Below are positions 8,917 through 23,399 of a stretch of 64,000 nucleotides of DNA, piece by piece. Where the stretch lies: the NCBI GenBank assembly GCA_049719955.1, contig JBNARC010000002.1, positions 77,626-141,625 of the forward strand, read 5' to 3'. The first letter of the stretch is position 1, and every line of letters begins with the position of its first letter. Source of the stretch: Moorellales bacterium (GTDB lineage: Bacteria; Bacillota; DSM-521; Neomoorellales; SLTJ01). Position numbers and translations under genes: made by a program. The notes beneath the pieces are model-generated. The model saw only the letters and a list, made by a program, of their open reading frames with translations, searched no databases and was not told where the DNA came from.

Positions 8917-8931
8917 CGGTAAATGTTACCG
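8917..8931. promoter_or_regulatory. Candidate operator: inverted repeat CGGTAA-ATG-TTACCG in the AT-richer gap upstream of the carboxylase operon
   Basis: Perfect 6+6 inverted repeat with a 3-nt spacer, between the regulator stop (8974) and the CoA-transferase start (8841). Confidence 0.25.
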
Positions 8932-8973
8932 AACAATAAGGTTTAGGAAGCTCATTTGGACCCTTTATACATA

Positions 8974-11730
8974 TCAGAAGAATTCCGGATGGTAGAAGTG
9001 GATGACCCTTAAAGCCACCTCCAGATTCAGCCGGCGGTCGGCTTGGTCAATCTCTGCGCCCAGGAGATCACGTATTCTTTCCAGTCGGTAACGAATAGTA
9101 TTGGGGTGACAAAACAGGGCCTCGGCCGCGCCCTTTATGCTTCCGTTAGCGGCATAATAGCTGGCCAAGGTCTTGAGATAGCCGGTATCCCTCCTGCCAT
9201 CCCGTTCTATCAGGGGGCCTAACAGGGCCACCGCCGCCTGGTAGAGACAGCGAGCGGTCTCCTCGTGGGCCAAAGCCTGGTAGAGGCCTAGTTCCTGGAA
9301 GGACGTAATCCCAGGCGGCAACTTCAGCCGCCGCGCGTACTCTACGGCGAAGCATGCCTGCGAGAAGGCGGCCGAAAAGGCGCTCAAGTCCTCCGCATAG
9401 CCCCCCACTCCCACCCAAAGGCGGTAATTCCGCGCCATGGTTTCTAACTGCCGCCGCGCCCTTTCCAGCCGACCGGGTATCAATACCACCAGCCGACCCT
9501 CGACCAGGGCGCAGAGGTTGTCGGAGAAGGCCTGCCGGATAAAAGCCCTTATTTCCGCCACTTCCGCCCGAGACAGTTTTCGCGACTGCCCGGCGTCCGC
9601 CGTGTTTTCCTCCGGGAGGGCCCGTGTCGGAAGGCAAACTACTACCAGGTGCGGGCGGGCCACATCGTAGCCCAGTCCGGCCGCCCGGGCCAGCACCTCC
9701 CCGGCCGAGGGACCACCGCCGACCAGGCCGGAAACCAACTCTTGCTCGGCAAACTGTATTACTCCCTGGGCCACTCGACTCTGCTCCTTGAGTAGCTCCA
9801 GAGCGTAGATAGGCAGCACCCGGAGCACTATTTCCTTAATCTCCTCGTATTCCTCCTTGCTATCCACCAGCACCCCCAGGTACCCACCGATATCTGCGGC
9901 CAGTTCGATCGGCAACAGAACCATTTCCCCGGCCGGCGGCACGGGCACCACGCAGGGCGGCTCCCGGCCAGCGGGAACACTCCTCGCACTTTCGGCCACC
10001 GCTCCCCGCAGCCCCTTTTCCGCCGCCGCCAGTTCCTCGGCCGCGAACCCCGCCCAGGCCCGTCGCACCAATCGGCAGTCGTAAAAGGCCACCTTCCGCT
10101 GCAGGCTCTTCGCCAGGGCCTCGGTAATGGCCTTGAGACCGGCCCCATCCAGTATTAGACGCGCGAGCTGCTCGTTGGTACCGGTGATGCGCTCCAGGCG
10201 CCGGGTCATCCTCCTTTCCGAGGCAAACAAGCGAGCGTTTCTTACCGCCATGGCCAGTTGACTGGCCACCAGGGACAGGAAGCGCAACTGGGAAGAAGTG
10301 AGCTGGACCGTAGGCCCCACCCAGGCCAACAGGCTACCCAGGTATTCCCCTCCCGTGGCAATTACCGCCCGTACCTGCGTGGCCGCCCCCAGAGTCCGGG
10401 CCTCGGTCTCTACCCAGTCCCCCGGTATCGGGTCGGCCCGCAGGTCCTTCACCTCCAGCTCGGCCGAACCGGCAGGCAAAAAGCGCCCGATCCAGGCACC
10501 GGCAACGCCTTCGGCGGCCACAATCCGGGGCCGGTCCGAGCCCTCCGGACAAACGGCTACGGCCACACCCAGCACCGGCATCACCTGGGGAATGGCCTGA
10601 GCGGCCTTCTTCACCAGGCCCTCCGGGTCTAATAGGTTAAAGTCCCGACTGAGCTCGTAAAGCACCCGGGACTGAGTCTCCTCCAGCTTGATGCGGCATA
10701 CCAGACGGGCGTTGGCAATGGCTACGGCCAGCTGGGAAACTACGGATTTCAACAGGGTTACGTCCTCTTCGGTAAAGCCTCCCGGCTTATTGGTTACATG
10801 CATTACCCCGATACAGCGGTTGCCTACCACCACCGGTAGACTCACCACACTCCGGGCGGGAAACAGGTCTAGGAGATGCTTAACGAACCTGGGGTCCTGG
10901 GGAGCGTCGTTGGAGAAATACGGTTCTCTCGTCTTGAACACCCGCACCGCGTTACTTACGTCTTCGGTAGTTACCTTGTAACGACTTATTCGGTGTTCGT
11001 CGTAGGAGCCGAAGGCGGGCTTTTGCAAGGCCAGGTACCCGGTTTCCTCCTCATAGAGCAATAGGCCCGCACCTTCCGCCCCCACCATGTTGCGGGCGGC
11101 CTCCAGCACTCTTTCCAGCGCCGCCTCAAAACCGCCTCCTTCCAGAAGGCGCTCGTTGGCCTCCCGCAGGCAGGCCAGGGTATCGTTCAGGAGCTTTCGC
11201 TCTTTGTTCAGGCTGTCCACCGTACTCAATAAGTGCCCATAATGGCGGCCCAGACCGGTAAGTAACCGGTGCGCTCCCGCCGGCACCAAGTCCGCTGCCC
11301 CGCCCAACAGGGCGAACCCGAACACCCGCTGCTCGGGCAAAAAGAAGCCCGTGCCTACTGCCCGGGCCGCCGGCGGTTCTCCAACGGCGGCCAACAGGGC
11401 GTTTATCGCCCGAAGGTCGAGTTCCTGCTCTCTCTCGCCTCCGGACGGGAGGGGATACGGGAAGATGTCGGCACCCAGAAAGAGCCGTCGGCGGTCTACC
11501 TCCCCGCCCTCATTCTTCCGCATTAGCGTAACCGAACCGCCGGACGATCGAGAACCCAGAAACAGTAAGGCGCCGGAACAGAAGCTATTGGCCACCAAGT
11601 CGGCCAACAGCCCCTCGTATCCCCACCACAACGGATCTTCTTCCGCCCGGAAGGTGGGGCACGCTTCGGCCGCAGAGGACGGACCCCACCCGCCGTCGCG
11701 CGCTTCCTCCCGTTGCACCGTGCCCTCCAT
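8974..11730 (-). CDS. Large transcriptional regulator: multiple GAF domains plus PucR-type C-terminal HTH
   Basis: 918 aa. GAF-like segments (e.g. GAEGAGLLLYEEETGYLAL...VGNRCIGVMHV). C-terminus GSIKGAAEALFCHPNTIRYRLERIRDLLG is the PucR-family HTH. Confidence 0.8.
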   Translation of the reverse strand: MEGTVQREEARDGGWGPSSAAEACPTFRAEEDPLWWGYEGLLADLVANSFCSGALLFLGSRSSGGSVTLMRKNEGGEVDRRRLFLGADIFPYPLPSGGEREQELDLRAINALLAAVGEPPAARAVGTGFFLPEQRVFGFALLGGAADLVPAGAHRLLTGLGRHYGHLLSTVDSLNKERKLLNDTLACLREANERLLEGGGFEAALERVLEAARNMVGAEGAGLLLYEEETGYLALQKPAFGSYDEHRISRYKVTTEDVSNAVRVFKTREPYFSNDAPQDPRFVKHLLDLFPARSVVSLPVVVGNRCIGVMHVTNKPGGFTEEDVTLLKSVVSQLAVAIANARLVCRIKLEETQSRVLYELSRDFNLLDPEGLVKKAAQAIPQVMPVLGVAVAVCPEGSDRPRIVAAEGVAGAWIGRFLPAGSAELEVKDLRADPIPGDWVETEARTLGAATQVRAVIATGGEYLGSLLAWVGPTVQLTSSQLRFLSLVASQLAMAVRNARLFASERRMTRRLERITGTNEQLARLILDGAGLKAITEALAKSLQRKVAFYDCRLVRRAWAGFAAEELAAAEKGLRGAVAESARSVPAGREPPCVVPVPPAGEMVLLPIELAADIGGYLGVLVDSKEEYEEIKEIVLRVLPIYALELLKEQSRVAQGVIQFAEQELVSGLVGGGPSAGEVLARAAGLGYDVARPHLVVVCLPTRALPEENTADAGQSRKLSRAEVAEIRAFIRQAFSDNLCALVEGRLVVLIPGRLERARRQLETMARNYRLWVGVGGYAEDLSAFSAAFSQACFAVEYARRLKLPPGITSFQELGLYQALAHEETARCLYQAAVALLGPLIERDGRRDTGYLKTLASYYAANGSIKGAAEALFCHPNTIRYRLERIRDLLGAEIDQADRRLNLEVALRVIHFYHPEFF

Positions 11731-11762
11731 TGCGCGCTCCCCCTCGCCGTTGGGCTTGCTCC

Positions 11763-11788
11763 GGGGGCGGCCGGAACCGGCCGCCCCC
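11763..11788 (-). terminator. Perfect 12-bp GC hairpin between the ligase gene and the regulator gene (no clear U-tract)
   Basis: GGGGGCGGCCGG-aa-CCGGCCGCCCCC. Confidence 0.3.
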
Positions 11789-11797
11789 GGGCGGCTC

Positions 11798-13219
11798 TTA
11801 ACTCTTCACCCTTACCAGCGCCGTCTTGTACTGGGTGCGCGGCAGGGTGTTGGGCGCCACCAGGGTCGCCTCGATGCGCACGTTGAGCAGGTCGCGTACC
11901 TTATCTTCCACGGATCGCTTTAGCGCCGCCAAGTCCTGGGCCAAAGACTTTACCTCTACGTCCACGGGTATGGGGTTATCAAACCTCACCTGGCCGGGAT
12001 AGTCCTTGACTATCTGGATATAGCCAGTGACCGCATCGGCGAAGTGGGTGAGAATGACGTCGCGGATGGCCGAGGGGAATACGTTCATGGCCTTATAGAT
12101 CAGCATGTCGTCTATTCGACCTATGCAGCGTATCTTCGGAGACTGCCGGCCGCAGGCGCAACCCCTTCCTTCCACCCGAATGAGATCGGCGGAGCGATAC
12201 CTCACCGCCGGGGTGGCCTCCCGTCGCAGGGCAGTGTAGACCGGTTCCCCTGTAACCCCCGGCTCCCAAGGCAGGTGCTCGCCCGTCTGAGGATCGATAA
12301 GCTCTACGGCTACATCCCTAAGGGCCACAAAATGCATTCCGGTTTCCTCTTCGCACTCCGCCCAGACTCCCGGAAACACGTCCGCCAGGCCCATAATCTC
12401 GCGCACCGAGGGATTGCCCCAGAGCTCTTTGAGCTTGCGCCGGATGGGCTCCTCCCCCAGTCCGGGCTCACCGCCGCCCAGAACCTTCTCTATGCCTATA
12501 TCCCTGGCCTCTACTCCCAGGGCTTCGCGACAGTGCTCGCCCAGGTACACGTCGAACGAGGCGGTAGCCTGCAGGACGTTACAGTGAGTATAGCGCATAA
12601 TCTCCAACACCCGGGCGGTAGAAACCCCCCCGATCCAGACCGTGGTGGCCCCCACGTGCCTTATGCCCTCGAAGTAGGGGTCGCCGCCGGCAAATAGGGG
12701 AACGGCGGTAGTATGGGCCACGATGTCTCCCCTTCGCACTCCGGCGGTGTGGAAGAACATGGCCAGGCCGTCGCGGAAGGCCTCGAGGTCATTGCGGGTT
12801 AAGCCGTAAAAAACCGGACGCCCCGAGGTTCCGGAAGAGGAAAGCACCTGCACCAGATCTTCCGTCTTGGCGGTCTGCAACAATCCCAGGGGCATCTCCC
12901 TGGTGGTGGAATTCTGGGCGTTGCGCACGTCTTCCTTGGTAAGAAAGGGCAGGTCGCGCAACTGCTCCAGAGAACGTAGTTTTTCCGGATCGAAGTCCTT
13001 CAGACGTTCCCGATAAAAGGGGCTGGCTTCCTTCACGTACTGCAGCTGACGCGGAAGCTGCGCCAGCCAATACCGTTGCACTTCCTCCCAGGACATAGTT
13101 TCTAACTCCGGGTTCCAATACTCGGCCAAGTCCAAACCCTCCCCCAACCTGGTGTGGTCGGAACGCCACCCTATCCAACTGCCTACGGCGCTACAGTCTA
13201 AGTATACTAGTTCCTTCAT
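11798..13219 (-). CDS. Phenylacetate-CoA ligase-like (PaaK / F390 synthetase family) adenylate-forming enzyme
   Basis: SSGTSGRPVFYGLTRNDLEAF and the overall PaaK pattern. The real start may be TTG at 13129 (GGGGGAGGG SD), giving the usual ..YWNPELETM.. N-terminus. Confidence 0.75.
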   Translation of the reverse strand: MKELVYLDCSAVGSWIGWRSDHTRLGEGLDLAEYWNPELETMSWEEVQRYWLAQLPRQLQYVKEASPFYRERLKDFDPEKLRSLEQLRDLPFLTKEDVRNAQNSTTREMPLGLLQTAKTEDLVQVLSSSGTSGRPVFYGLTRNDLEAFRDGLAMFFHTAGVRRGDIVAHTTAVPLFAGGDPYFEGIRHVGATTVWIGGVSTARVLEIMRYTHCNVLQATASFDVYLGEHCREALGVEARDIGIEKVLGGGEPGLGEEPIRRKLKELWGNPSVREIMGLADVFPGVWAECEEETGMHFVALRDVAVELIDPQTGEHLPWEPGVTGEPVYTALRREATPAVRYRSADLIRVEGRGCACGRQSPKIRCIGRIDDMLIYKAMNVFPSAIRDVILTHFADAVTGYIQIVKDYPGQVRFDNPIPVDVEVKSLAQDLAALKRSVEDKVRDLLNVRIEATLVAPNTLPRTQYKTALVRVKS

Positions 13220-13301
13220 AATGATACAAAGGTTCTGGCGGCCAAATTTGTTCGCTTCGACTTGTTATTGGACTACAACTTCGGGCCAGACGACCGGCGG
13301 A

Positions 13302-13928
13302 CTAATCGATCAGCACCAGGGCCAGGGCCAGCAGGCCCGGCACCTCCTCCGGAGGATGACTGCCCGCCGGATGGATCTCCCACCCGGCGGCCAGGGCCAT
13401 GGCGTAGGCGTCGAATCCCGCCGCCTCCATGCTCGGCCGGGCCAAAAGCGGGAAGCGGCAGCCCTCAGCCGGATTGATCAGGGCGCGGCAGGGCTCGTTC
13501 CCGCAGAGATAGCGCCTGCAAGAGCCGGAACCGAAACCGGCCGCCAGATAGTAGCCGTCGTAGAAGGCCGCGGTCTCCACCGCGCTTACCGCCTCGTACA
13601 CCGCCCGGCTGGCCCGCCCGTCCCACCGCAACAAGAGGCCCCAGGAATACCGGGCCACTACCTCCGGGCTCTCGGCTAAGTTAGGCGCCCAGGGCGGACA
13701 GTTGCCGCAGGCTCCGTAATGCCGACACCTGGGCGCCTGACACTTCAGGCGCACCCGGGGATCCAGGCGCAGGTCTTCGCGGCGGAGAACCCTACCGGCC
13801 GCAGCCCCGAACTCCCGGGCCAGGGCCAGGTACCGATCCAGGTCCGCCCGCACCGCCTCTTCCCGCCGCCTGGCGGCCTCGGCCAGAGAGCGGACCCGCA
13901 GGTAGCGGCTTCGCAGGGCCGAGTTCAT
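13302..13928 (-). CDS. DUF2284-type predicted metal-binding (Cys-rich) protein
   Basis: 208 aa. RVRLKCQAPRCRHYGACGNCPPW and a second Cys cluster (CRRYLCGNEPC). ATGA overlap with the upstream hydrolase. Confidence 0.65.
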   Translation of the reverse strand: MNSALRSRYLRVRSLAEAARRREEAVRADLDRYLALAREFGAAAGRVLRREDLRLDPRVRLKCQAPRCRHYGACGNCPPWAPNLAESPEVVARYSWGLLLRWDGRASRAVYEAVSAVETAAFYDGYYLAAGFGSGSCRRYLCGNEPCRALINPAEGCRFPLLARPSMEAAGFDAYAMALAAGWEIHPAGSHPPEEVPGLLALALVLID

Positions 13929-14560
13929 CCTTCACCCGCCTCCAGCGCCGCGAGAATGGAGGCGCTGTCCATGACCCGGCCGAAAACCTCGGCCATGTTG
14001 CGCAGGGTGGCCCGGTGCAGTTCCTCATCCAGGGCGGCGTTTACGTCGCTCCCGAACACCACCTGGTAATCGCGGAAGAAGGCGTCCCGGGCGGTGGATT
14101 CGCAGCAGATGTTGGTGACCGTACCGCAGATGATTACGGTGTCGATCTGGTTGGGTCCTTTAAGATTGCGCAGAACGGTTTCCAGCTCCGTGTTGTAGAA
14201 GGCGCTGAACCTCCGCTTACGAATTACCATCTCTCCCGGCCGGGGGGCTATTTCTGGGTATACCTCCACCCCCGGAGTACCCTCCCGCAGCCCTACCTCC
14301 TTCAGGCGGGGAAACATGCGCACCTGGAGGGGACAAAGCCACAGTTCCGGATGATGAACGTGCACGGTGTATATCACCGGCACGCCCAATCGCCGGCATC
14401 CCTCGATTAGCGCCTTAACCCGGGGAATCTGCCGCCTGGCCTCGGGCACTTCCATGATCGCCCCCGGCGCCACAAAATCGTTTTGCAAATCGATTACCAG
14501 TAACGCGCTCCTCTCCCGCCGAAAGGTCCAGGGAACCCCGGCTTGACCGGCCTGTCCCAC
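13925..14560 (-). CDS. Isochorismatase-family cysteine hydrolase (second copy)
   Basis: 211 aa. ALLVIDLQNDFV and CGTVTNICCESTARDA motifs. GTG start with AAGGAGGAG SD. Confidence 0.85.
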   Translation of the reverse strand: MGQAGQAGVPWTFRRERSALLVIDLQNDFVAPGAIMEVPEARRQIPRVKALIEGCRRLGVPVIYTVHVHHPELWLCPLQVRMFPRLKEVGLREGTPGVEVYPEIAPRPGEMVIRKRRFSAFYNTELETVLRNLKGPNQIDTVIICGTVTNICCESTARDAFFRDYQVVFGSDVNAALDEELHRATLRNMAEVFGRVMDSASILAALEAGEG

Positions 14561-14587
14561 AATTCAACTCCTCCTTTCCGCCTGGTT

Positions 14588-14624
14588 AAGAAAGGGGGGG
14601 GGGCGCCCTCGCACCCGCGCCCCC
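14588..14624 (-). terminator. Rho-independent terminator after the symporter/micro-ORF unit
   Basis: GGGGGCGC-loop-GCGCCCCC followed by CCCCCTTTCTT on the minus strand. Confidence 0.55.
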
Positions 14625-14658
14625 TCCCGGTCCAGCGCCCGCAAGATACCTGGCGGTC

Positions 14659-14778
14659 TCAGTTAGAGGACTGCGGCCGCTTCTTGATTGCCCCCCACCA
14701 CAGGGCAAAACCGCCGTACACCAGCATCAGGACCATGATCATAATCATCCACAAGCGGGTAACCACTACTTCTTCCAT
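14659..14778 (-). CDS. Micro-ORF, 39-aa single-pass membrane peptide
   Basis: Below the ORF-track cutoff. GGTGGGGAGG SD. MEEVVVTRLWMIMIMVLMLVYGGFALWWGAIKKRPQSSN. ATG lies 3 nt after the stop of the preceding micro-ORF. Confidence 0.5.
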   Translation of the reverse strand: MEEVVVTRLWMIMIMVLMLVYGGFALWWGAIKKRPQSSN

Positions 14779-14781
14779 TGC

Positions 14782-14892
14782 TTAAGCCTCCCCACCTTGT
14801 TGACGTCCGCCCAAACGCACGAGAAAATCGATTATCAAGGTTGCCACCAACACCGTTACCATTACCTTCCAGAATAGTACCCATATTAACAT
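14782..14892 (-). CDS. Micro-ORF, 36-aa single-pass membrane peptide
   Basis: Below the ORF-track cutoff. GGGGGGAAGG SD. MLIWVLFWKVMVTVLVATLIIDFLVRLGGRQQGGEA. Lies 65 nt downstream of the symporter stop. Confidence 0.5.
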   Translation of the reverse strand: MLIWVLFWKVMVTVLVATLIIDFLVRLGGRQQGGEA

Positions 14893-14957
14893 TTCGCCTT
14901 CCCCCCTTGCCCGTATGTCCGGATGGTCCCGTCGCGGCGGGTTCGAGCCCACCGCCC

Positions 14958-16445
14958 TCAGGCGCCCACTACCGGCGCGGACCGACGGCGCGAAGCGGTG
15001 AAGTAGCCCGGTTCTCCCCTGAGGACCGCGGTTAGGACAATGCCCAGGACCAGACTAATGAGCAGCACAATATAAATGCCCGGCAGGTTGGGCAGGCCGA
15101 TCGCCGCCGGAAGCCCGGTGAAGGACCACAGAGCGTTAGCTATCCAGGCCACCGCCCAGGTAATGCCGGCCGCCAGGGGCGAGCGCTTCCAGAAGAGGCC
15201 CATGACCAGGAACACCGAGACCGGAACCGACCAGGCGTACAGCCACAGAATGGCGGCCACGATAGGCGGAAGAGCCATGGACGGCACCACCGCGGCCACC
15301 GCCAAGATCAGCATTACCACGCGGATGGCCCGTTCGACTTCCTTCTCCGAGGCCTGCGGTTTCAAAAGGTTAACGTATATATCCTTGACAAAGGCGGTAG
15401 CCGGAGCCAAGCAGGTGATGGAGAAGGTAGAGAGCACCACCAACATGAAGCTGGCCAACAACCAAGCGCAAAGCCACCAGGGCAGCAGTCCCACCAGCAT
15501 GGCCGGAGAGGCCAGCTTGGGCCCCAACCCAGCGAACTGCGGTAGGGTCTTGGCCGCCAGCCCCATGGCGCAGGTGAAGATGCCAAAGGCGGCGTTTACC
15601 GGCACCGCGATCCACATCGACTTCTGGACGGTACGCACGCTGTCCGCGGAAATCATGGGCTGCAACAGGAACTGATTGGACAAATGGAACAGGGGCAACA
15701 CCAGCAGGTTCACCAGGGCGAAGGATACGAAAGTCCCCGGTGCTCCCATTATGCTGAGAGCCCAGGCCTGGTTCTGGGAGAGGTAGAACTCGTTTACCCC
15801 GCTCCAGCCGCGAGGGAGCACCAGGCCCAGATATATGGCCGCCACCACCCCGCCCACGTAAAGCACGCCGATATTGACCAGATTCAGGCGGGCGATCTGT
15901 TTCATTCCCGCTATGAATACGTACAGAATGCCTATTATGGCCCCCAGAATAACCCCGTACTGCAAAGGCACCCCGGTCAGGGCGGACATAACGATACCCA
16001 ACCCTTGGGTCTCCAGGGTAAGCACCCCCCAGATCAGAGGGGCGCCCACGCAAACGCTGACCACCGCCAGGGCTTGGCTTCCCGTGGCCCGGCCCACCAG
16101 CTCGTAAGCCGTGCCCACCCCCAGGCTCCTGGCCCAACGCCCGCTGGTGGCGGCCAGAATCGCCAAAGTAAGGGCGGAACCGATGGAAAACCACAGCGTG
16201 GCCGCCCCCATAAACCAAGACATCTCAAAGAAGCCCAGAACGTGTACCGCTCCCAGTACCGCCAGGCCGCAGGTCAGCCCTACCTCCCACAACCCCATGC
16301 TTCGAGCCGCAAGGGCGAATTCGTCCTTGGCCCCTTTGCGCCGGCGCAACTCACTGATTCCGATGCCGATAACCACCGCCAACAAATAAGCAAGCACGAT
16401 TGCCAATACCAGGCCAGACTTACCGCTCATACCCGTGCCACCCAC
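14958..16445 (-). CDS. Sodium:solute symporter family transporter
   Basis: 495 aa, polytopic hydrophobic pattern typical of SSS permeases. Paralogue of 20970..22463. Confidence 0.85.
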   Translation of the reverse strand: MGGTGMSGKSGLVLAIVLAYLLAVVIGIGISELRRRKGAKDEFALAARSMGLWEVGLTCGLAVLGAVHVLGFFEMSWFMGAATLWFSIGSALTLAILAATSGRWARSLGVGTAYELVGRATGSQALAVVSVCVGAPLIWGVLTLETQGLGIVMSALTGVPLQYGVILGAIIGILYVFIAGMKQIARLNLVNIGVLYVGGVVAAIYLGLVLPRGWSGVNEFYLSQNQAWALSIMGAPGTFVSFALVNLLVLPLFHLSNQFLLQPMISADSVRTVQKSMWIAVPVNAAFGIFTCAMGLAAKTLPQFAGLGPKLASPAMLVGLLPWWLCAWLLASFMLVVLSTFSITCLAPATAFVKDIYVNLLKPQASEKEVERAIRVVMLILAVAAVVPSMALPPIVAAILWLYAWSVPVSVFLVMGLFWKRSPLAAGITWAVAWIANALWSFTGLPAAIGLPNLPGIYIVLLISLVLGIVLTAVLRGEPGYFTASRRRSAPVVGA

Positions 16446-16508
16446 CTTTCCTCCTTAATTCAGGCGCTCCTTTCGACCCAGAAAACGCCCCCAACTTGCT
16501 CCGGTTCC

Positions 16509-16535
16509 CTCAGGCGCTACCGTCGGCCAACTCAG
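16509..16535 (-). repeat. Mini-fragment related to the repeat family
   Basis: Minus-strand CTGAGTTGGCCGACGGTAGCGCCTGAG is near-identical over about 20 nt to CTGAGTTGGCCGGCGGTACCGGG at 34802-34824. Confidence 0.35.
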
Positions 16536-16552
16536 AAGTCGGAACAACCCGG

Positions 16553-18574
16553 CTATCGCCCCCCTTCTTCGGTTGTTGGTTCTGCCGCGTCCTTCTCATT
16601 CGGACGGGCCTGCATGCGGGTTACCGCTTCCCGGATCTCCTCCACCGAGGCGTCCTCCTCCAGGGTGGAGAGATCCCCCAACTCGCCGCCGGTCAAGAGC
16701 GCCTTCATCACCCGGCGCATTATCTTACCGCTGCGGGTCTTGGGGAGGGCGGCGACAAATTGAATATCCCTCATCACCACAATCGGGCCCAGGCTACGGC
16801 GCAGGTGAGCCATAAGTTCCTGCTTCAGCTCCTGGGTCCCCGCATAACCCGACCGTAGGACCACGAAAGCGCTGGCTACCTCTCCCCGCATTTCGTCCGG
16901 CACCCCGGACACCCCGGCTTCGGCCACCGCCGGGTGGGAAAGCAGGGCGCTTTCGATCTCCACCGTGCCGATGCGGTGGGAGGCGATCTTTATCACCTCG
17001 TCCGCGCGCCCGGCAAACCAGTAGTAACCCTCTTCGTCCCGGTAGGCGGCATCGCCCAGATAATAGCTCCCCCGGGTGCCGGCCGCCTTTTCCCAATACT
17101 CCTGGCGGTAGCGGTCCGGCTCGCCCCACAAGGTGGGGGTCAGCCCGGGAAACGGACGCCGGATCACCACCACCCCTTTTTGCCCCGGGGGCAGCGGCCG
17201 TCCTTCCTTCTCCTCCACTACCTCGGCTACAATGCCCGGCAGAGGAATACCGGCCGAACCCGGCTTGATGGGCACCATCCCCAGGCCGTAGGGATTGGCG
17301 AAAACCGGTCCCGAGGTTTCCGTCTGCCACAGATGATCGATCACCGGCACCCGGTTTTCAAAGACCTCCTCCTGCAACCACTGCCAGGCCGGAGGGTTCA
17401 GCACCTCCCCGGCGCAGAAAACGCGCTCCACCGAAGAAAGATCGTGCTGCCGCGCCGGCTCCAGCCCCAGTCGCATGAGCAGGCGCACTCCGGTAGGCGA
17501 AACCCAAAAGCCCGTCACCCGGTTACGCTCAATCACCCGCCACCACATATCCGGTTGCGGGTAGTCGGGGGCGCCGTCGTACAGCACGCTGGTGCACCCC
17601 GCCAGGAGCGGGCCGTATACGTTATAGCTGTGGCCCACAATCCAGCCGATATCCGAAGTGCAAAACCACACGTCCTGCTCCTTGAGGCCGTACACCCACT
17701 TGCCCATCAGGTGAACATATACTTGGTACCCGCCGTGGGTCTGAACCGTAACCTTAGGCTTGGCGGTAGTCCCCGAGGTGGGAAGAAGGAAAAGCGGCTC
17801 GTTGGCCTCCATGACCTCCGCCTCGGCCTCCTGGGGGCGACCGAGGCTTAACAATTCTTCCCAGGAAATCTCCCGCCTCCGATCACCGGGAGGAAAAAGG
17901 CCTGCCGGTTCGGCCCCGCTCTCGGGGTGGCGCACTACCACCGCCCACCGCACCCGGTCGCCGTCGCCCGCCAAGGCCTCCTTGGCAATATCCGCCAGTT
18001 CCACCGGTTTGCCCCGGCGAAAGGTGCGCTGTCCGGTGACCAGGTACCGGGCGCCGGTAAGGCGCAGGCGCTCCGCCAACGCTCCGGCCGAGAAGCCCGC
18101 GAAAACCACTACGTGCACCGCGCCTATTCGAGCGCAGGCCAGCATGGTGACCACGGCCTCCAGGCTCATGGGCAGGTAAACCGCCACCCGGTCCCCGCGC
18201 CCCACTCCCAGGGCTTTAAGCGCGGAGGCGCACCGTCTCACCAGATCAAGCAACTGCGCGTAGGTCACCACCGTGCTTTGCCCCGTTTCGCCGGACTCCA
18301 GAACCAAGGCCGCCCGGCCGGCCCGGCCCTTCTTCACATTGTGGTCCAGGCAGTTATAACTAATGTTGGTGTGGCCCCCCACGAACCAGCGAAAACTGGG
18401 ATACTCCCAGACCAGGGCCTGGTCCCAGTATCGAAACCAGTGAAGATCCGAGCATACCTCCCGGGCGACCCAATCCCAGAAACGCTCGGGCTCGGCCTCC
18501 GCCCAACGCCGGAGGGTATCTAGCTGCGGTGGCAGGATCCTGGTAACGGCCAGTGAGTGCGCCATGCCCTTCAC
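16553..18574 (-). CDS. Acs-family AMP-forming acyl-CoA synthetase (acetate/propionate/acetoacetate-CoA ligase type)
   Basis: 673 aa. WFVGGHTNISYNCLDHNV, TSGTTAKPK and SGKIMRR motifs of the acetyl-CoA synthetase family. Confidence 0.85.
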   Translation of the reverse strand: MKGMAHSLAVTRILPPQLDTLRRWAEAEPERFWDWVAREVCSDLHWFRYWDQALVWEYPSFRWFVGGHTNISYNCLDHNVKKGRAGRAALVLESGETGQSTVVTYAQLLDLVRRCASALKALGVGRGDRVAVYLPMSLEAVVTMLACARIGAVHVVVFAGFSAGALAERLRLTGARYLVTGQRTFRRGKPVELADIAKEALAGDGDRVRWAVVVRHPESGAEPAGLFPPGDRRREISWEELLSLGRPQEAEAEVMEANEPLFLLPTSGTTAKPKVTVQTHGGYQVYVHLMGKWVYGLKEQDVWFCTSDIGWIVGHSYNVYGPLLAGCTSVLYDGAPDYPQPDMWWRVIERNRVTGFWVSPTGVRLLMRLGLEPARQHDLSSVERVFCAGEVLNPPAWQWLQEEVFENRVPVIDHLWQTETSGPVFANPYGLGMVPIKPGSAGIPLPGIVAEVVEEKEGRPLPPGQKGVVVIRRPFPGLTPTLWGEPDRYRQEYWEKAAGTRGSYYLGDAAYRDEEGYYWFAGRADEVIKIASHRIGTVEIESALLSHPAVAEAGVSGVPDEMRGEVASAFVVLRSGYAGTQELKQELMAHLRRSLGPIVVMRDIQFVAALPKTRSGKIMRRVMKALLTGGELGDLSTLEEDASVEEIREAVTRMQARPNEKDAAEPTTEEGGR

Positions 18575-18585
18575 CCCTGCGGCCG

Positions 18586-19560
18586 CTACGGTAAGGGCCG
18601 CATCCCGGTCAGTTCCCGATACTCTTGAGCGGTCATCGGTTCCCTACCCAGCATGCGGGCCACGGCTACGGTTTGCTCCACTGTCTCGCGATTGGATACG
18701 ATTACCGTATCCCGGTGCGGCAGGCGGTAAATGGTATCCTCTTTGCCCACCCGAACGTGACAACCCAAAAGGATGGCCAGGGTCACCAGATAGAAAGACG
18801 CCCTTCCGCAGGCACAGATGGTGACAACGGACCTCTCCTGGCTGCACACGTCCCTGATACGCCTTATCGTGTATAATATGGTTTCCGCCATAGAAAGAGG
18901 GTCCCACATGGGGGCATTGCCGGGCATCCCTGCCAGCACCAGCCAACAGAAGGGCGGTTGCACAATTCCTGGTCGGATCAGCCACCGATAGGTATTGTCT
19001 ACATCTCCGGGATTGTAAACCGCCAGCAGAGGTTTCTTTCCGCAGGCGTGGAGTACTTCCACCGTAGCCTTACAGGTCTGCGGGGGCAGGTAAGATATCG
19101 TATCTCCGAAGAAGGTGGCATGACAGTTAATGGCAGCCGATTCATATAGGTCTTCTACAATGGGCTCCATCATTTCCTCAAAAGTCTCACCGAAAAGAGC
19201 CTCCCCATCTATGTGAACCGCAAACCCGAACCGTTCTCGCAAGGCCCGGACCACTGCTTCCGTCTTCTTGCGATCCCCAGATGGAAAGCCGTTTTCGTCG
19301 CGCACGTGGACGTGGACGGAGCACGCTCCAGCCTCCACGCTTTCAATGGCTTCCCTGATTATTTCCTCTACGGTATACGGTTGATAGGGATTCTGCTGCT
19401 TGGTATAGAAGGCTCCCGTGGGAGCCGCTATTATGGCAATCTTATCCGGTACCTCCCAGGGCGGGTGAGACGCGGTCTCCAGGATGGTGTGCCCGTAGGG
19501 CCGAAAGAAGATGGTCGGAACGTCCCTGTACCGGGAGAAGTCGACGTCGTGCCTCGCCAA
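18586..19560 (-). CDS. Beta-keto acid cleavage enzyme (BKACE / DUF849, 3-keto-5-aminohexanoate cleavage enzyme family)
   Basis: 324 aa. IIAAPTGAFYTKQQNPYQPYTVEEIIREAIESVEAGACSVHVHVRDENG is the family signature. TTG start with GGGAGGG SD. Confidence 0.8.
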   Translation of the reverse strand: MARHDVDFSRYRDVPTIFFRPYGHTILETASHPPWEVPDKIAIIAAPTGAFYTKQQNPYQPYTVEEIIREAIESVEAGACSVHVHVRDENGFPSGDRKKTEAVVRALRERFGFAVHIDGEALFGETFEEMMEPIVEDLYESAAINCHATFFGDTISYLPPQTCKATVEVLHACGKKPLLAVYNPGDVDNTYRWLIRPGIVQPPFCWLVLAGMPGNAPMWDPLSMAETILYTIRRIRDVCSQERSVVTICACGRASFYLVTLAILLGCHVRVGKEDTIYRLPHRDTVIVSNRETVEQTVAVARMLGREPMTAQEYRELTGMRPLP

Positions 19561-19594
19561 GGTCTAATCCCTCCCGTGCCCATTTCTCACGAGG

Positions 19595-19645
19595 CTAGTA
19601 GTGTCTGGCGCCGCCCTCGACGTTGATACTCTGTCCGGTTATAAA
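19595..19645 (-). pseudogene. Orphan 3' stub of an SDR gene (last 16 codons plus stop)
   Basis: Minus-strand FITGQSINVEGGARHY* against FITGQNINVEGGARHY* at the end of the intact SDR 20147..20914. No upstream SDR reading frame. Confidence 0.6.
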
Positions 19646-19767
19646 CCGCCGCCATGTACCGCCGTCCAAAGGACAGTACCAAGTGGGCAGTATGGTCACG
19701 AAAGCCGCCTGAAGGCCCTGAATTAATTATAGCCCTTCAATATAAATTAAGAATATCGGGGAAGTAT

Positions 19768-20007
19768 AAAAAATAACAAGCGACCTTGTCACAGCCGAAC
19801 AATCGCGGTGGAGCCGGTATTCGGGCAGATCAAGCAAGGCCGGGGCCTTGGCCAGTTCCCCTACGGGGCCTGGAGAAGGTACGCTCGTCCTGGCGTTTCG
19901 ATTGCGCGGTACACAACCTGATCAAGCTGTTCCGGGCGGGGGTGTGGGGTAAGGGTCTGAAAGGGGTCACCCCAAATCCCTGCCTTAACCACCGGTGTGA
20001 AGGATAG
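19768..20007 (+). mobile_element. Decayed C-terminal remnant of an IS1182/IS5-type DDE transposase (N-terminally truncated and frameshifted)
   Basis: One frame reads ..IAVEPVFGQIKQGRGLGQF. A second frame (track ORF 19786..20007) reads LRGLEKVRSSWRFDCAVHNLIKLFRAG. Together they form the conserved transposase C-terminus, broken by a frameshift near 19856. Confidence 0.65.
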
Positions 20008-20146
20008 CTACAATATACGGTTATCAAAGACCGGTTTCTCTGGGCCAACCGATTACTAACACAGGCTGCTAGAAGCCCTTCTGGCCACCGTTTTCCGCTT
20101 CGCGGTCGGCGGTGGCGTTGAGTTGGGTGGCGCCCAGCGGCACACG

Positions 20147-20914
20147 CTAGTAATGGCGGGCACCGCCCTCTACGTTGATGTTCTGTCCGGTTATGAACCC
20201 ACTATCGTCCGAGGCCAAGAATACCAACACTCCTTCCAAATCCTCGGGCTCCATAGGACGCTTGAAGATGCGCTGCTCCATAGCCACCTTGTAGATAAAC
20301 TCCATTTCGGCCGGGTCGCTGGCAAGCCCCTTGGCCGCCTCGGTCATAGTGAACCCCGGCGTAATGGAGTTCACCCTGATCCCGTACTCTCCCACCTCGC
20401 GAGCCAACGCCCGGGTTAGCGCCCAAATTGCTCCCTTAGAGGCCACATAGTGGCTCAGCAAGGGAGCGCCCTCGATGATGGTGGCGGAGGAAATATTGAT
20501 GATTACCCCTCCACCCTGTTTTTTCATCTGCGGCACTACCGCCCGGCAACAGTTCCAGACCCCCTTCACGTTTACGGCGAAGACCGCGTCCCACTCTTCC
20601 TCCGGGATCGCGTCGAAAGGCTTTAGTTTAAGCCCTCCCAAAAAGGCCGCGTTGTTTACCAAAATGTCGATACGGCCGAACGCGCCCACGGTTTCTTCCG
20701 CCATTTGCTTCACCCGGTCGAATCGGGTTACGTCTACCTGTATACCCAGTACTTCACTCCCCTGAGCTTTGAGCAGGTCTACGGTGCCACCCGGGTCGAG
20801 AATATCGGCCACCACCACCCTGGCGCCCTCCCGACCCAGGCGCCGTGCGAACACCCGGCCGATCCCGCGAGCCGCGCCCGTAACTATGGCCACCCGGCCC
20901 TCCAACCCCGGCAC
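20147..20914 (-). CDS. Short-chain dehydrogenase/reductase (FabG-like)
   Basis: 255 aa. VAIVTGAARGIG, NNAA, and Y..ASK catalytic pattern (SHYVASKGA). Confidence 0.9.
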   Translation of the reverse strand: MPGLEGRVAIVTGAARGIGRVFARRLGREGARVVVADILDPGGTVDLLKAQGSEVLGIQVDVTRFDRVKQMAEETVGAFGRIDILVNNAAFLGGLKLKPFDAIPEEEWDAVFAVNVKGVWNCCRAVVPQMKKQGGGVIINISSATIIEGAPLLSHYVASKGAIWALTRALAREVGEYGIRVNSITPGFTMTEAAKGLASDPAEMEFIYKVAMEQRIFKRPMEPEDLEGVLVFLASDDSGFITGQNINVEGGARHY

Positions 20915-20969
20915 GACCCTGTCACCTCTTTCTATGAGGAGTAACTTTCCTCCCGCGAACTACTCCCTG

Positions 20970-22463
20970 TCAGCTCAACCCGGAGGAAAGCGAAGACCCA
21001 GCCGCCCTATGGCCCCGAGCGAACCGTCCCCTTTCGCCCGGCAGAGCCAAGGTAAGGCCCACTCCCAGTATCAGGGAAACAATCAGGCTAAAGTACGGGA
21101 CGCCAAACCACTCCGGAGCGCCCAGCGCTTTGGGTAAACCCGTATACTGCCACACAAAGGAAAGGACGAGGGTCGGCAACATAGTCCAGAAGGCAGCCTG
21201 GGGAGTCCTCTTCCAGAACAGACCGATCACCATCATCACAAACATGGGTATGGCCAAGGCGAAGACGAACAGCCCGGTGAGCAGTATGTGCGGCAGGAAG
21301 TACGCGGGTATTAAGGTAGCCACCCCCGGAACGATAATTAGAAGCCGCCCCAGCCACGGTATGAGGCTCTCTTTGTCTTCCCGGCGCGAGAAACGCAGGT
21401 AGAAATCATTGATCAGGATCTGGCTAATGCCCATAGAAAAACGAGCCCACGTAGACAGCACTATGACCAGGAAGGCGGCCAGCAGTATACCGGCCACAAG
21501 AGTAGGCAGGTAGGTAAGAAGCATGGCTACCCCGGCGCTCTTCGGCCCGTAACCGGCAAACTCCGGCAGGGCCATGGCCGCCAGGCCGAAGCTGATGGTG
21601 AAGAAGGCAAACGGGACGTTGAACAGTATGGAAATGAAAAAGGCGTTACGGGCGCTCCTGGTATCCTGAGCCGAGAGGGCGTACTGCATCATCCCCTGGT
21701 CGATGGAATCCGAACAGACCACGGCGATGACGATCGCAAAGGCAAACCCCAGAAGCAGCATGGGATCGGCCGGCCAGAAGCTAAGCATGGTAGAAGCTCC
21801 TTTTGCAAGGTAGGTGGCCTCTACCCCCGCCCAGCCCTGAGGCAGCCGGGCGCTGACCAGGATGAAACCCAGAACTATCACCGCGTAGGTCAGAATGGTG
21901 TTAATGAAATTGAGATAGGCCACCTGCCACATGCCCGAGATCAACATATATGAGGCGGCGCATACCAGGAAAAGAAACAGCGCCAGCCGCACGTCCACCC
22001 CGGTTATGCCCGCCAACACCACGCCGCCGCCCTGGGTTTCCAAGGATAGGATCCCCCACGCGATAAACAGGCCTATGAGCGACGCTACCACTCTGGACCG
22101 GCCGTCGAATAGCTCACCGATAATCTGCGGTACGGTATTGGCGCCCAAACGACGATAAAAAGGCGCGAGAAAAGCACCCGATACCGCCTTCACCACTCCC
22201 GCTGCTACCGAAAACCAAAGCGCTACCAATCCTAAGGTTCCACCGGATTCCATCAACCCCACGGTGTGAAGAGATCCAATGCCTGCCAGGGCAATGGTTA
22301 TCCCACCCAACCAGGGACCGAGCGACTTATCGGCAAAAAGAAAGCTTTCCCCGGTGCGGCCGAGCTGCCGTCTGGCCAGATACACGCCGATCCCTACCGA
22401 TACCAGCAGCACGTAAACAATAGCTATCACCAGGATGTCCCACTTGAAGCCCACCGCGCACAC
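20970..22463 (-). CDS. Sodium:solute symporter family transporter (second copy)
   Basis: 497 aa polytopic. The likely true start is the GTG 9 nt inside (AAGGAGG SD). Confidence 0.85.
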   Translation of the reverse strand: MCAVGFKWDILVIAIVYVLLVSVGIGVYLARRQLGRTGESFLFADKSLGPWLGGITIALAGIGSLHTVGLMESGGTLGLVALWFSVAAGVVKAVSGAFLAPFYRRLGANTVPQIIGELFDGRSRVVASLIGLFIAWGILSLETQGGGVVLAGITGVDVRLALFLFLVCAASYMLISGMWQVAYLNFINTILTYAVIVLGFILVSARLPQGWAGVEATYLAKGASTMLSFWPADPMLLLGFAFAIVIAVVCSDSIDQGMMQYALSAQDTRSARNAFFISILFNVPFAFFTISFGLAAMALPEFAGYGPKSAGVAMLLTYLPTLVAGILLAAFLVIVLSTWARFSMGISQILINDFYLRFSRREDKESLIPWLGRLLIIVPGVATLIPAYFLPHILLTGLFVFALAIPMFVMMVIGLFWKRTPQAAFWTMLPTLVLSFVWQYTGLPKALGAPEWFGVPYFSLIVSLILGVGLTLALPGERGRFARGHRAAGSSLSSGLS

Positions 22464-22484
22464 CTCCTTAGCCGGCCGGGCCGA

Positions 22485-22583
22485 CTAGACTTCTTTGGGC
22501 ATAAGCAGATAACAGACGAGGGTAACCACACCCACTATAACCCACTGCCACACCACCGCTTTGAGAATAAACAGCACCCCCAT
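22485..22583 (-). CDS. Micro-ORF, 32-aa single-pass membrane peptide upstream of the second symporter
   Basis: Below the ORF-track cutoff. GGGAGGGAGGG SD. MGVLFILKAVVWQWVIVGVVTLVCYLLMPKEV. Stop lies 21 nt before the symporter ORF-track start (30 nt before the internal GTG). Confidence 0.45.
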   Translation of the reverse strand: MGVLFILKAVVWQWVIVGVVTLVCYLLMPKEV

Positions 22584-22652
22584 CCCTCCCTCCCGAATTC
22601 CGTACCCGGCCCGCTTCGGTACCGCCTCCGTCACGAGCCACCTCTGCCGAGC

Positions 22653-23399
22653 TCAATGAACCGTATAGCCACCATCCACGTAAAGGCAAGCTCCGGTGAT
22701 AAACGACGCTTCGTCCGAGGCCAGGAACAGGCAAGCATAGGCTACTTCTATGGGCTCTCCCAGCCGTCCGAGCGGGTGCAGCGGTATAATGGTATCCAGC
22801 GCGTCCTTCATAGGTCCTTCCAGGGTCAACGGCGTACGGATAAAGGCCGGGCACACCGCGTTGGCGCGGATGTTGTCCTTGGCGTAGTCAAGCGCTATGC
22901 TCTTGGTCAGCATGACCACCCCGCCCTTCGACGCCGCGTAGGCGGCCAGACCGGGAATCGCCACCTGAGCCGCTATCGAGGCCAGGTTCACGATACTGCC
23001 TCCCCCACTCCGCTTCATGAAGGGAAGGGCATGCTTACAACAGAGGTATATGCCTTTTAGATTGGTACCGACGACGTAGTTCCAACGCTGTTCCTCCAGT
23101 TCTCCCACCGGCGCGGCCTCGGCCACCCCGGCGGAGTTGACCAGGACGTCCAGCCGAGAGAACCGGCCAAACGCCTGCTCCATCAGGGATCTCACCTGTT
23201 CCTCCTGGGTTACATCCGCCTCCATGAACACCGCCGTTCCTCCGGCCCGCCCGATCTCATCCACAACCAGACGACCCGCTTCCTGATTCAGGTCACTGGC
23301 GACTACCTGCGCCCCCTCCCGGGCAAAGAGCAGGGCTACCTCGCGACCGATGCCGCTGGCCGCACCGGTGATCACCGCCACCTTATTCCTCAACCTCAT
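22653..23399 (-). CDS. Short-chain dehydrogenase/reductase
   Basis: 248 aa. VAVITGAASGIG, NSAG, YAASKGG motifs. Confidence 0.9.
   Translation of the reverse strand: MRLRNKVAVITGAASGIGREVALLFAREGAQVVASDLNQEAGRLVVDEIGRAGGTAVFMEADVTQEEQVRSLMEQAFGRFSRLDVLVNSAGVAEAAPVGELEEQRWNYVVGTNLKGIYLCCKHALPFMKRSGGGSIVNLASIAAQVAIPGLAAYAASKGGVVMLTKSIALDYAKDNIRANAVCPAFIRTPLTLEGPMKDALDTIIPLHPLGRLGEPIEVAYACLFLASDEASFITGACLYVDGGYTVH

Follow-up and report, generated by a model that had tools for sequence, protein, structure and literature searches.

In the Hpe, Acv and EbN1 pathways of ketone carboxylation, an aryl beta-keto acid is made by a kinase together with a biotin carboxylase, and a ligase working with either a thiolase or a hydrolase converts it to the aroyl-CoA. 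In strain SYK-6, VceA instead uses acetyl-CoA to turn vanilloylacetate into vanilloyl-CoA. VceA may be a BKACE, a beta-keto acid cleavage enzyme. For strict anaerobes, the fate of aryl methyl ketones such as 4-hydroxyacetophenone and acetovanillone after carboxylation is known for one denitrifier only, which uses a ligase and a thiolase. If a BKACE took over this step, the ATP spent by the ligase would be spared, and acetoacetate metabolism would be tied to aromatic degradation.

The window analysed here is a stretch of 64,000 nucleotides from a Moorellales bacterium. It carries a module with a BKACE-like gene that, together with its neighbours, looks like the lower part of an accessory island of ~35 kb for the catabolism of ketones by carboxylation. 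The BKACE-like enzyme probably catalyses the last step of this anaerobic island and does not seem to be the hub of a hydroxy-acid pathway of its own. What we observed directly is the gene content, the residues of the active site, the synteny across phyla and the site of insertion; all steps of the pathway are inferred.

All genes named in the original prediction are found on the minus strand within 14659-23399, namely two SSS symporters, an Acs-type ligase, a PF05853 protein and two SDRs. The features of the module are as follows.

14659-14778, minus strand: micro-ORF of 39 aa, a single-pass hydrophobic peptide, 3' of symporter A
14782-14892, minus strand: micro-ORF of 36 aa in tandem with the 39-aa one, a single-pass hydrophobic peptide
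14958-16445, minus strand: SSS symporter A (PF00474, 80 bits)
16553-18574, minus strand: Acs-type AMP-forming ligase (ACAS_N, AMP-binding and AMP-binding_C)
18586-19560, minus strand: BKACE-like Zn TIM-barrel protein (PF05853, 180 bits)
19595-19650, minus strand: 3' stub of a destroyed third SDR, similar to the 3' end of SDR-1
19786-20007, plus strand: frame-broken C-terminal fragment of a transposase, probably IS1182/IS5-type from the reading of its peptide
20147-20914, minus strand: SDR-1 (adh_short_C2, 214 bits)
20970-22463, minus strand: SSS symporter B (PF00474, 101 bits)
22485-22583, minus strand: membrane micro-ORF of 32 aa, upstream of symporter B
22653-23399, minus strand: SDR-2 (adh_short_C2, 250 bits)

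The run of genes is interrupted at 19561-20146 by the SDR stub and the transposase fragment. Apart from these, the ORFs are intact with short gaps between them, and the housekeeping genes proA, proB, obg and spo0B are the upstream neighbours (23976 onward). The stub is ~85% identical to the 3' end of SDR-1 over ~55 nt, which indicates a paralogue that has diverged, not a recent copy; 35 nt separate its stop codon from the start of the BKACE gene. A third SDR gene just upstream of the BKACE gene is destroyed by this IS scar. The transposase sequence recurs at 81-87% on several contigs of a genome of the same family (G002). On the minus strand, a match to a sigma-70-like promoter (19792-19763) faces the BKACE gene, and a G+C-rich hairpin followed by UUUCUU is situated at ~14590-14625, beyond the 39- and 36-aa micro-ORFs. 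The scar and the terminator-like hairpin would divide the region into separate transcription units, which counts against the island pathway proposed below.

Positions 1 to 14560 form the rest of the island inside the window, and its genes accompany BKACE orthologues elsewhere. The following were assigned with Pfam.

3-947, minus strand: UPF0261 protein
1001-2422, minus strand: PYC-type carboxyltransferase
2515-4353, minus strand: PEP-utilizers subunit
4221-5258, minus strand: PPDK_N subunit
5304-6017, minus strand: isochorismatase-like protein 2
6031-7362, minus strand: biotin carboxylase
7442-8011, minus strand: BCCP
7762-8841, minus strand: family III CoA-transferase
8974-11730, minus strand: GAF/PucR regulator
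11798-13219, minus strand: PaaK-like ligase
13302-13928, minus strand: DUF2284 protein
13925-14560, minus strand: isochorismatase-like protein 1

The distance between nadD and proA is ~0.55 kb in two genomes of the same family (G002 and G003) and ~35 kb here, which indicates a single island insertion between genes that are adjacent in those relatives. At the level of domains (PPDK_N, PEP-utilizers, Biotin_carb, Biotin_lipoyl and HMGL-like/PYC_OADA), the locus combines a two-subunit kinase of the PpsAB/HpeHI type with a three-part biotin carboxylase that includes a PYC-type carboxyltransferase. The kinase and the carboxyltransferase reached no specific NCBIfam family. No HAD-family phosphatase of the HpeD/AcvF type was found among ORFs of at least 110-150 aa in window positions 1-23399 and C2:64000-78700. 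The island encodes a UbiD-family protein. The genome also holds BcrAD-type ATPases, HGD-D pairs and a molybdenum hydroxylase, all scoring far below the cut-offs for benzoyl-CoA and 4-hydroxybenzoyl-CoA reductases. The two isochorismatase-like hydrolases, a CN-hydrolase in one BKACE locus (L021) and AmiC-type binding proteins are hints of a substrate with an amide group, which lies outside the model proposed here.

The BKACE-like protein scores 180 bits on PF05853 (cut-off 24.8). Its AF2 model (pLDDT 91.6) superimposes on 3LOT, Kce (2Y7F) and BKACE15 (8RIP) with TM-scores of 0.77-0.80, and by this model the DUF849 TIM-barrel fold is present. The original prediction had suggested placement in the published active-site classes and regarded loss of the Zn and substrate ligands as grounds for rejection. 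H83, H85 and E274 correspond to the Zn ligands His46, His48 and Glu230 of Kce and are kept; they are invariant, bar fragments, in 34 clade members and all 175 sampled relatives. R270 and D275 (Arg226 and Asp231 in Kce) are invariant as well, and N145 (Asn108) is kept. The catalytic Glu, in contrast, is gone: Ala180 occupies the position of E143 in Kce and E171 in BKACE15, in a gap-free alignment of PEVEVYESG with KPLLAVYNPGD. By the published classes, the protein would be G7 ("non-BKACE"). Six residues after Ala180 there is an invariant Asp186. Phe51 is found at the position of Glu14 of Kce, where it may provide a hydrophobic pocket, and the protein has a 38-aa N-terminal extension.

In BKACE15, the E171L variant is inactive and E171D retains 5% of the activity (PMC11961710). 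According to the NetSyn preprint, Bastard et al. (2014) found no activity on any of the keto acids screened for proteins without a catalytic residue. Among the relatives sampled here, the change of E143 to Ala, Ser or Thr is coupled to a change of M149 to Asp, and the 112 sampled sequences that carry both changes all belong to a single clade, which makes up 117 of the 167 leaves of the tree. The clade includes Papillibacter, Syntrophaceae, Binatia and Betaproteobacteria. The window protein did not reach the NCBIfam equivalogs NF052387 (144 against 382), NF053538 (91 against 430) or NF053568 (79 against 350), which cover Kce, the 3,5-dioxohexanoate (triacetate) enzyme of the phloroglucinol route and 3-oxoadipate:acetyl-CoA acetyltransferase, and none of six representatives of the Glu-less clade came near any characterised cut-off in NCBIfam. 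A role as the Kce of lysine fermentation was rejected on the score far under the equivalog cut-off, the replacement of Glu14 by Phe and the lack of lysine-fermentation neighbours. The phloroglucinol route, with two SDRs and a triacetate lyase, was rejected on its NF053538 score and the lack of a cyclohydrolase gene. For the BKACE clade of the window, "3-keto-5-aminohexanoate cleavage enzyme" is a wrong annotation.

Orthologues of the BKACE-like protein (67-75% identical) are mostly from Desulfobacterota; no orthologue was found in 40 related genomes, where the best match is 31% identical. Nine independent loci offer at least 10 kb of sequence around an orthologue of at least 67% identity. Eight of them contain a kinase subunit, UPF0261 or a part of the biotin carboxylase, with the kinase subunits 54-67% and UPF0261 43-56% identical to those of the window. 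The BKACE gene directly follows a biotin-carboxylase gene in L105 and L025, and phenylphosphate-carboxylase-like genes adjoin it in L009. The carboxylase operon, noted earlier as a physical neighbour, is indeed adjacent, but it is more than that: it is a conserved partner of the BKACE clade across phyla. The module therefore fits better as the lower section of the carboxylase pathway than as a hydroxy-acid route that stands on its own. The association of SDR, BKACE and transporter genes recurs, with SDR homologues in seven of 22 non-redundant loci and a transporter gene directly after the BKACE gene in most long loci, where it is the most constant neighbour. SSS symporters and Acs, however, which had been named as partners, accompany BKACE orthologues nowhere else.

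An orthologous Firmicute island (L190) shares the PEP-utilizers subunit (68%), the carboxyltransferase (53%), PPDK_N (51%), biotin carboxylase (48%), symporter B (55%) and isochorismatase-like protein 1 (48%). After its PucR regulator it has an AMP-ligase and a thiolase, where the window has Acs and BKACE. By analogy, the latter pair may have displaced the former. In a genome of the same genus (G001), the kinase/carboxylase part is kept and symporter A is conserved (79% DNA identity), but Acs is reduced to a remnant with a stop codon, and BKACE, symporter B and SDR-2 were not found, with a contig break at that spot.

The ligase had been proposed to recycle acetoacetate, a role its profile scores do not favour. 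It passes the acetate-CoA ligase model NF001208 (696, cut-off 657), is slightly under TIGR02188 (681, cut-off 725) and matches ACAS_N with 53 bits, while it stays far below the cut-offs of both acetoacetate-CoA ligase models (NF002937, 294 against 639; TIGR01217, 212 against 521). It is an extra, divergent paralogue, 45% identical to the housekeeping Acs of the genome on contig C24, and it is most closely related (60-69%) to Acs genes that stand alone, in housekeeping contexts, in Firmicutes of the Desulfotomaculia type. The two symporters are paralogues (34% identical) well above the PF00474 gathering threshold of 22.8, and both score far below the cut-offs of all substrate-specific NCBIfam models. 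Called 30-aa genes of similar sequence precede the symporter B orthologues in L187, L188 and L190, in the place of the 32-aa micro-ORF; the micro-ORFs themselves have no match in Pfam. SDR-1 and SDR-2 are 36% identical. Among the PDB matches of SDR-1, (S)-1-phenylethanol dehydrogenase (2EW8) ranks fifth; orthologues of SDR-1 are found in the BKACE loci L105 and L025 (49-50%) and adjoining a symporter B orthologue in L189 (63%). For SDR-2, 4URE/4URF ("cyclohexanol dehydrogenase") ranks fifth, which we take to be ChnA/R-HPED of EbN1, and its homologues (42-47%) abut BKACE orthologues in L004, L024, L026, L027 and L028.

In the pathway that we propose, the SDRs would oxidize a secondary alcohol to a methyl ketone, or would take a 3-hydroxy acid straight to the corresponding 3-keto acid. 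The core of the island, a split PEP-synthase-type kinase with the three-part biotin carboxylase, would convert the ketone to a beta-keto acid, most likely an aroylacetate such as 4-hydroxybenzoylacetate. The BKACE-like Zn enzyme would bind this acid and, with acetyl-CoA, yield an acyl-CoA and acetoacetate, an assignment to which we give an even chance. This step would replace the ATP-consuming ligase and thiolase of the sister island and of Aromatoleum aromaticum EbN1. As the canonical base is Ala180 here, Asp186 is proposed as a relocated base, possibly aided by Asp118 and Glu120. Acetoacetate would be handled by the AtoDA-type CoA-transferases and thiolase of the genome, the Acs-type ligase would re-activate released acetate or supply acetyl-CoA, and the symporters and small membrane peptides may import substrate or acetate. 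The likeness of the SDRs to 1-phenylethanol dehydrogenase and 4URE, the UbiD gene and Phe51 are indirect hints of a 4-hydroxyphenyl methyl ketone, and the phenylphosphate-carboxylase-like genes of L009 fit an aromatic theme. Counting against the scheme are the missing catalytic Glu, the scores of the clade below every characterised equivalog, the HAD phosphatase not seen in the window and, with the reservation of the contig break, the state of BKACE and Acs in G001. Conversion of levulinate to 3-oxoadipate is not favoured, because the putative pocket has Phe51 and the acidic Asp118 and Glu120 but no cationic residue.

The module could also be self-contained, with symporters importing a beta-hydroxy acid that SDRs oxidize and BKACE cleaves, the ligase recycling acetoacetate and the carboxylase uninvolved. 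The gene order gives this some appeal: an SDR gene overlaps the BKACE orthologue start/stop in L026, SDRs lie to either side of it in L004, the third SDR, now destroyed, reached to just before the BKACE start, a transporter is the most constant neighbour, and the terminator-like hairpin separates the unit from downstream genes. We nevertheless consider it unlikely, given the absence of symporters and ligase beside BKACE orthologues, the Acs-type scores of the ligase, the kinase, UPF0261 or carboxylase partners in eight of nine long loci and the missing catalytic Glu. This last feature also bears on whether the protein is a CoA-dependent lyase at all. It might be a "non-BKACE" member of PF05853 using its Zn site for another step of the same pathway; candidates are hydrolysis of a phosphorylated carboxylation product (the HAD-phosphatase step of Hpe and Acv), hydration and decarboxylation. 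PF05853 already includes cis-epoxysuccinate hydrolase and ObcA, Ala180 replaces Glu throughout the clade, the window shows no HAD phosphatase, and the G7 proteins of Bastard et al. were, according to the NetSyn preprint, inactive on keto acids. Against this, the residues for beta-keto-acid and Zn binding (H-x-H, E274, R270, D275 and N145) are all kept, the loss of Glu goes strictly together with Asp186, as if the base had moved, and L190 has a ligase and a thiolase, not a phosphatase, at the corresponding place, and also carries an HD-domain gene. We regard a non-lyase function as quite improbable.

The region may, finally, be a partly decaying mosaic of unrelated genes that IS elements have gathered at a hot spot of recombination, with no common pathway. 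The IS fragment and truncated SDR, the losses in G001 and the solitary relatives of the ligase agree with this, but the other ORFs are intact and closely spaced, and three pairings recur in unrelated genomes: BKACE with kinase/carboxylase, symporter B with SDR-1, and symporter B with the carboxylase island. A mosaic is very unlikely in our view.

Beyond the window, we suggest tentatively, and with rather more doubt than confidence, that the Glu-less, Asp-fixed PF05853 clade (117 of 167 leaves) consists of active lyases with a relocated base, and that the window subclade is the anaerobic counterpart of VceA. If so, aroylacetates from a kinase-coupled biotin carboxylase would be charged straight to aroyl-CoA without ATP, the rule that a protein with no catalytic residue is a non-BKACE would be overturned, and an anaerobic route for aryl methyl ketones from lignin would gain the lower half that it lacks so far. 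As this clade is widespread and lies in a clear catabolic context although the "essential" Glu is gone, it offers a direct test of whether the catalytic base can move within the barrel.

The window protein shares its fold, Pfam family, Zn ligands and Arg/Asp/Asn residues with Kce (PDB 2Y7D-G) and BKACE15 of Paracoccus denitrificans (8RIO/8RIP/9HNF), but it is merely 20-27% identical to them and differs in Ala for Glu, the fixed Asp at +6, Phe for Glu14 and the 38-aa extension. The E. coli acs-yjcH-actP operon consists of an Acs gene followed by an SSS-family permease, with a small membrane protein. The window likewise pairs an Acs gene with an SSS permease and small membrane peptides, although its symporters reach 45-50 bits on the VC_2705/ActP-type model (cut-off 321), and its peptides match no Pfam family and sit downstream, not between the genes. 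With Hpe of Rhodococcus rhodochrous GD02 and Acv and VceAB of Sphingobium sp. SYK-6 it has in common the order from kinase through biotin carboxylase to an aryl beta-ketopropionate, a product predicted for the window; those aerobes have a HAD phosphatase (HpeD/AcvF), of which none is seen in the window, and the likeness to VceA is in the reaction proposed here. The anaerobic p-ethylphenol/4-hydroxyacetophenone pathway of EbN1 (Hped1/S-HPED, HacABC, which is XccABC, AcsA1 and TioL1) similarly has a pair of alcohol dehydrogenases of the SDR family and a biotin carboxylase in three parts whose genes cluster with kinase genes of the HpeHI type; as proposed for the window, an aryl beta-keto acid is then converted to aroyl-CoA. 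EbN1 does this with an acetoacetyl-CoA-synthetase-like ligase and a thiolase, and L190 keeps a ligase and a thiolase, whereas the window island, which lacks such a pair, has the BKACE-like protein and the Acs-type ligase instead.

The symporters, SDRs, BKACE-family gene and Acs-family ligase of the original prediction are all present on the minus strand.

Features of the region around the BKACE-like gene
22653-23399, minus: SDR-2
22485-22583, minus: membrane micro-ORF, 32 aa
20970-22463, minus: SSS symporter B
20147-20914, minus: SDR-1
between SDR-1 and the BKACE-like gene: scar, 586 bp
18586-19560, minus: PF05853/BKACE protein
16553-18574, minus: Acs-type ligase, starting 11 bp past the BKACE-like gene
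14958-16445, minus: SSS symporter A
14659-14892, minus: two membrane micro-ORFs
after the two micro-ORFs: G+C-rich hairpin with a U-tract

The two symporters are 34% identical and the two SDRs 36%. A third SDR gene survives in the scar as its final ~55 nt; ~85% identity with the end of SDR-1 marks it as a diverged paralogue, and its stop codon lies 35 nt upstream of the BKACE-like start. The opposite strand of the scar carries the broken end of an IS1182-like transposase. A sigma-70-like match (19792-19763) is directed towards the BKACE-like gene. The region is at least two transcription units, not one operon. The micro-ORF upstream of symporter B matched no Pfam family. Its position and sequence (...W...V...VCYL.MPKEV-like) are conserved before the symporter orthologues in three other loci (L187:7872-7964, L188:7872-7964 and L190:17826-17918), and it has the appearance of a small subunit belonging to this SSS subfamily.

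The distance from proA to nadD, which lies downstream, is ~0.55 kb in two genomes of the same family. In the source genome, ~35 kb of catabolic genes separate the two (C2:66461-101600 on the contig that carries the window; window about -11160 to 23975), so that the comparison provides a clean empty site and defines an accessory island. Besides its split PEP-synthase-type kinase (PPDK_N and PEP-utilizers) and biotin carboxylase (BC, BCCP, CT), the inserted stretch (C2:66794-101024) carries an Fe-ADH, a nitroreductase-like protein, a TRAP permease and, left of the window, a second PYC-type carboxyltransferase paralogue (C2:75877-77304) and a UbiD-family (de)carboxylase (C2:67984-69357). Taken as longest ORFs, the PEP-utilizers and PPDK_N genes (window 2515-5258) overlap by 133 nt and the BCCP and CoA-transferase genes (window 7442-8841) by 250 nt; translation probably starts further inside these ORFs. 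Window 1-16430 is conserved at 71-83% DNA identity in a same-genus genome, G001, which retains only a ~200-nt ligase remnant with a stop codon directly at a contig end. The BKACE, symporter B and SDR-2 genes were not found anywhere in G001, whose contig breaks at that spot; the island thus varies at its BKACE end, with the break precluding a firm call of absence.

No orthologue of the BKACE-like gene was detected in 40 related genomes, the same genus included. MAGs of Desulfobacterota, Chloroflexota and Actinomycetota, together with metagenomes, supply most of the orthologues (55-75%). Clustering of a library at 50% identity places the clade in one cluster; 45 representatives are reached there at E ≤ 1e-30, and the family counts 1959 members at E ≤ 1e-3. 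The 18 proteins encoded in window 1-23400 served as queries against all retrieved loci. Partners were counted in nine independent loci of at least 10 kb with an orthologue of at least 67% identity, the window included. The split kinase (PEP-utilizers 54-67% and/or PPDK_N 54-57% identical) is present in five of the nine, UPF0261 in six and biotin-carboxylase parts in four, and eight have at least one of these three. An SSS symporter and an Acs above 27% identity occur in the window alone, in none of the other eight. Six long loci have a branched-chain-type ABC transporter after the BKACE gene, a place that the symporters occupy in the window. The order in L105, repeated in L025, is CT, BC, a 148-aa ORF, BKACE, ABC transporter, UPF0261, a PaaK-like ligase and an SDR-1-like gene. 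Across 22 non-redundant loci used for neighbour clustering, SDR homologues lie near BKACE orthologues in seven, and in L026 the SDR and BKACE genes have overlapping stop and start.

Some neighbourhoods contain additional elements. After the BKACE/transporter unit, two orthologous loci (L021:8747-13516 and L009:16247-20972) encode an acetoin-dehydrogenase-like complex (E1alpha/E1beta/E2/E3), a possible sign of a diketone or alpha-hydroxyketone branch. An amide-bearing compound may be indicated by the isochorismatase-like hydrolases, DUF2284, the AmiC-type binding proteins and, in L021, a CN-hydrolase. A distant PF05853 protein (29% identical) in L075:10001-16769 likewise lacks the catalytic Glu, and its second Zn histidine is Gln; it directly precedes PPDK_N, two PEP-utilizers genes and UPF0261, so the kinase association reaches beyond the window's clade.

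The BKACE-like protein (324 aa) has the family fold (AF2 model, pLDDT 91.6; TM-scores of 0.77-0.80 against the solved structure 3LOT and the characterised members Kce and BKACE15), with only 20-27% identity to any solved member, and reached none of the characterised NCBIfam equivalogs. Residues were mapped by gap-free alignments to Kce, and the published Zn ligands served to verify the numbering. The Zn ligands are kept (H83/H85/E274), and R270, D275 and N145 correspond to Kce R226, D231 and N108. Phe51 takes the position of Kce Glu14, which we take to bind the substrate's amino group, and the Ser82 region reads IDGE. At the position of Kce E143, equivalent to BKACE15 E171, the protein has Ala180. 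In BKACE15, E171L abolished activity and E171D left 5% (PMC11961710). Residues 143 and 149 (Kce numbering) show a reciprocal pattern across 175 relatives from two collections: canonical relatives carry Glu143 and, for the most part, Met149, and all sequences more than ~33% identical to the window protein combine Ala, Ser or Thr at the first position with Asp at the second, Asp186 in the window protein. All 112 of the latter type fall within one clade of 117 leaves in a FastTree phylogeny; support at that node is modest (0.58), in a sample that leans towards the query. In the AF2 model, Ala180 closes beta-strand 5 and Asp186 opens the next helix.

The ligase scores as an acetate-CoA ligase. It lies within a populous Desulfotomaculia-type clade (60-69%) of stand-alone genes in housekeeping contexts; a second Acs in the genome, 45% identical to it, is the copy common to relatives. 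The whole clade has DH[LM]WQTETSGP instead of the canonical DTWWQTETGG, and GWIVGHSY and CAGEV instead of GWVTGHSY and SVGEP. These substitutions alter three of the four residues that presumably line the acetate pocket. Relative to the Salmonella Acs structure, the pocket Trp414 appears to be retained and Val386 to be replaced by Ala, which would suggest acetate or propionate as substrate. The genome has AtoDA-type CoA-transferases and a thiolase, and the former could supply acetate to the ligase.

We give about an even chance to the reading that the BKACE-like enzyme is an island-linked beta-keto-acid:acetyl-CoA lyase, a reading that the kinase, UPF0261 and carboxylase partners support. The original prediction, a stand-alone hydroxy-acid route with the ligase recycling acetoacetate, appears unlikely: the symporters and Acs do not recur beside the orthologues, and the ligase falls far below acetoacetate-CoA ligase models; acetate recovery would fit it better than direct acetoacetate activation. 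A different Zn chemistry is decidedly unlikely. Loss of the Zn and substrate ligands had been proposed as a refutation; the outcome is mixed, the Zn ligands being present and one catalytic residue absent. The published classification assigns proteins with a missing catalytic residue to group G7, whose members showed no activity on any keto acid screened and were labelled non-BKACE (NetSyn preprint). That the region is a mosaic without common function, as its scar and variable end might indicate, seems very improbable beside the recurrent partners of the lyase reading.

An orthologous Firmicute island, L190, holds the best long-contig symporter B homologue (55%). It encodes UPF0261, CT (53%), PPDK_N (51%), PEP-utilizers (68%), BCCP, BC (48%), a GAF/PucR regulator, an AMP-ligase, a thiolase, a 30-aa micro-ORF, SSS and an isochorismatase-like protein (48%). 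The ligase and thiolase stand in the place of Acs and BKACE in the window and match the chemistry of A. aromaticum EbN1 on 4-hydroxybenzoylacetate (AcsA1/TioL1); a displacement of this kind is the expected picture, should the BKACE-like protein carry out that conversion in a single step.

Kinase and biotin carboxylase together lead to an aryl beta-ketopropionate in the Hpe (GD02) and Acv (SYK-6) pathways and in the eph cluster of EbN1. No phosphatase candidate was identified among the ORFs of at least 110-150 aa in window 1-23399 and C2:64000-78700. Of two other contigs of the genome, one ends with IorAB, two BcrAD-type ATPases and a PaaK-like ligase (C23:23344-28962) and the other starts with two HGD-D subunits and an acyl-CoA ligase (C20:679-4611); they may be one arylacyl-CoA dehydratase/reductase locus split by assembly. 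EbN1, like the window region, has two SDRs, there of opposite stereospecificity for 1-(4-hydroxyphenyl)ethanol. The fifth PDB hit is 1-phenylethanol dehydrogenase for SDR-1 and 4URE, which we believe to be EbN1 ChnA/R-HPED, for SDR-2; since SDRs are promiscuous in similarity, this is suggestive only. SYK-6 VceA (SLG_24960) converts vanilloylacetate to vanilloyl-CoA in an acetyl-CoA-dependent manner, so the proposed reaction has precedent; what would be new is its occurrence in an anaerobic island, executed by a Glu-less BKACE clade.
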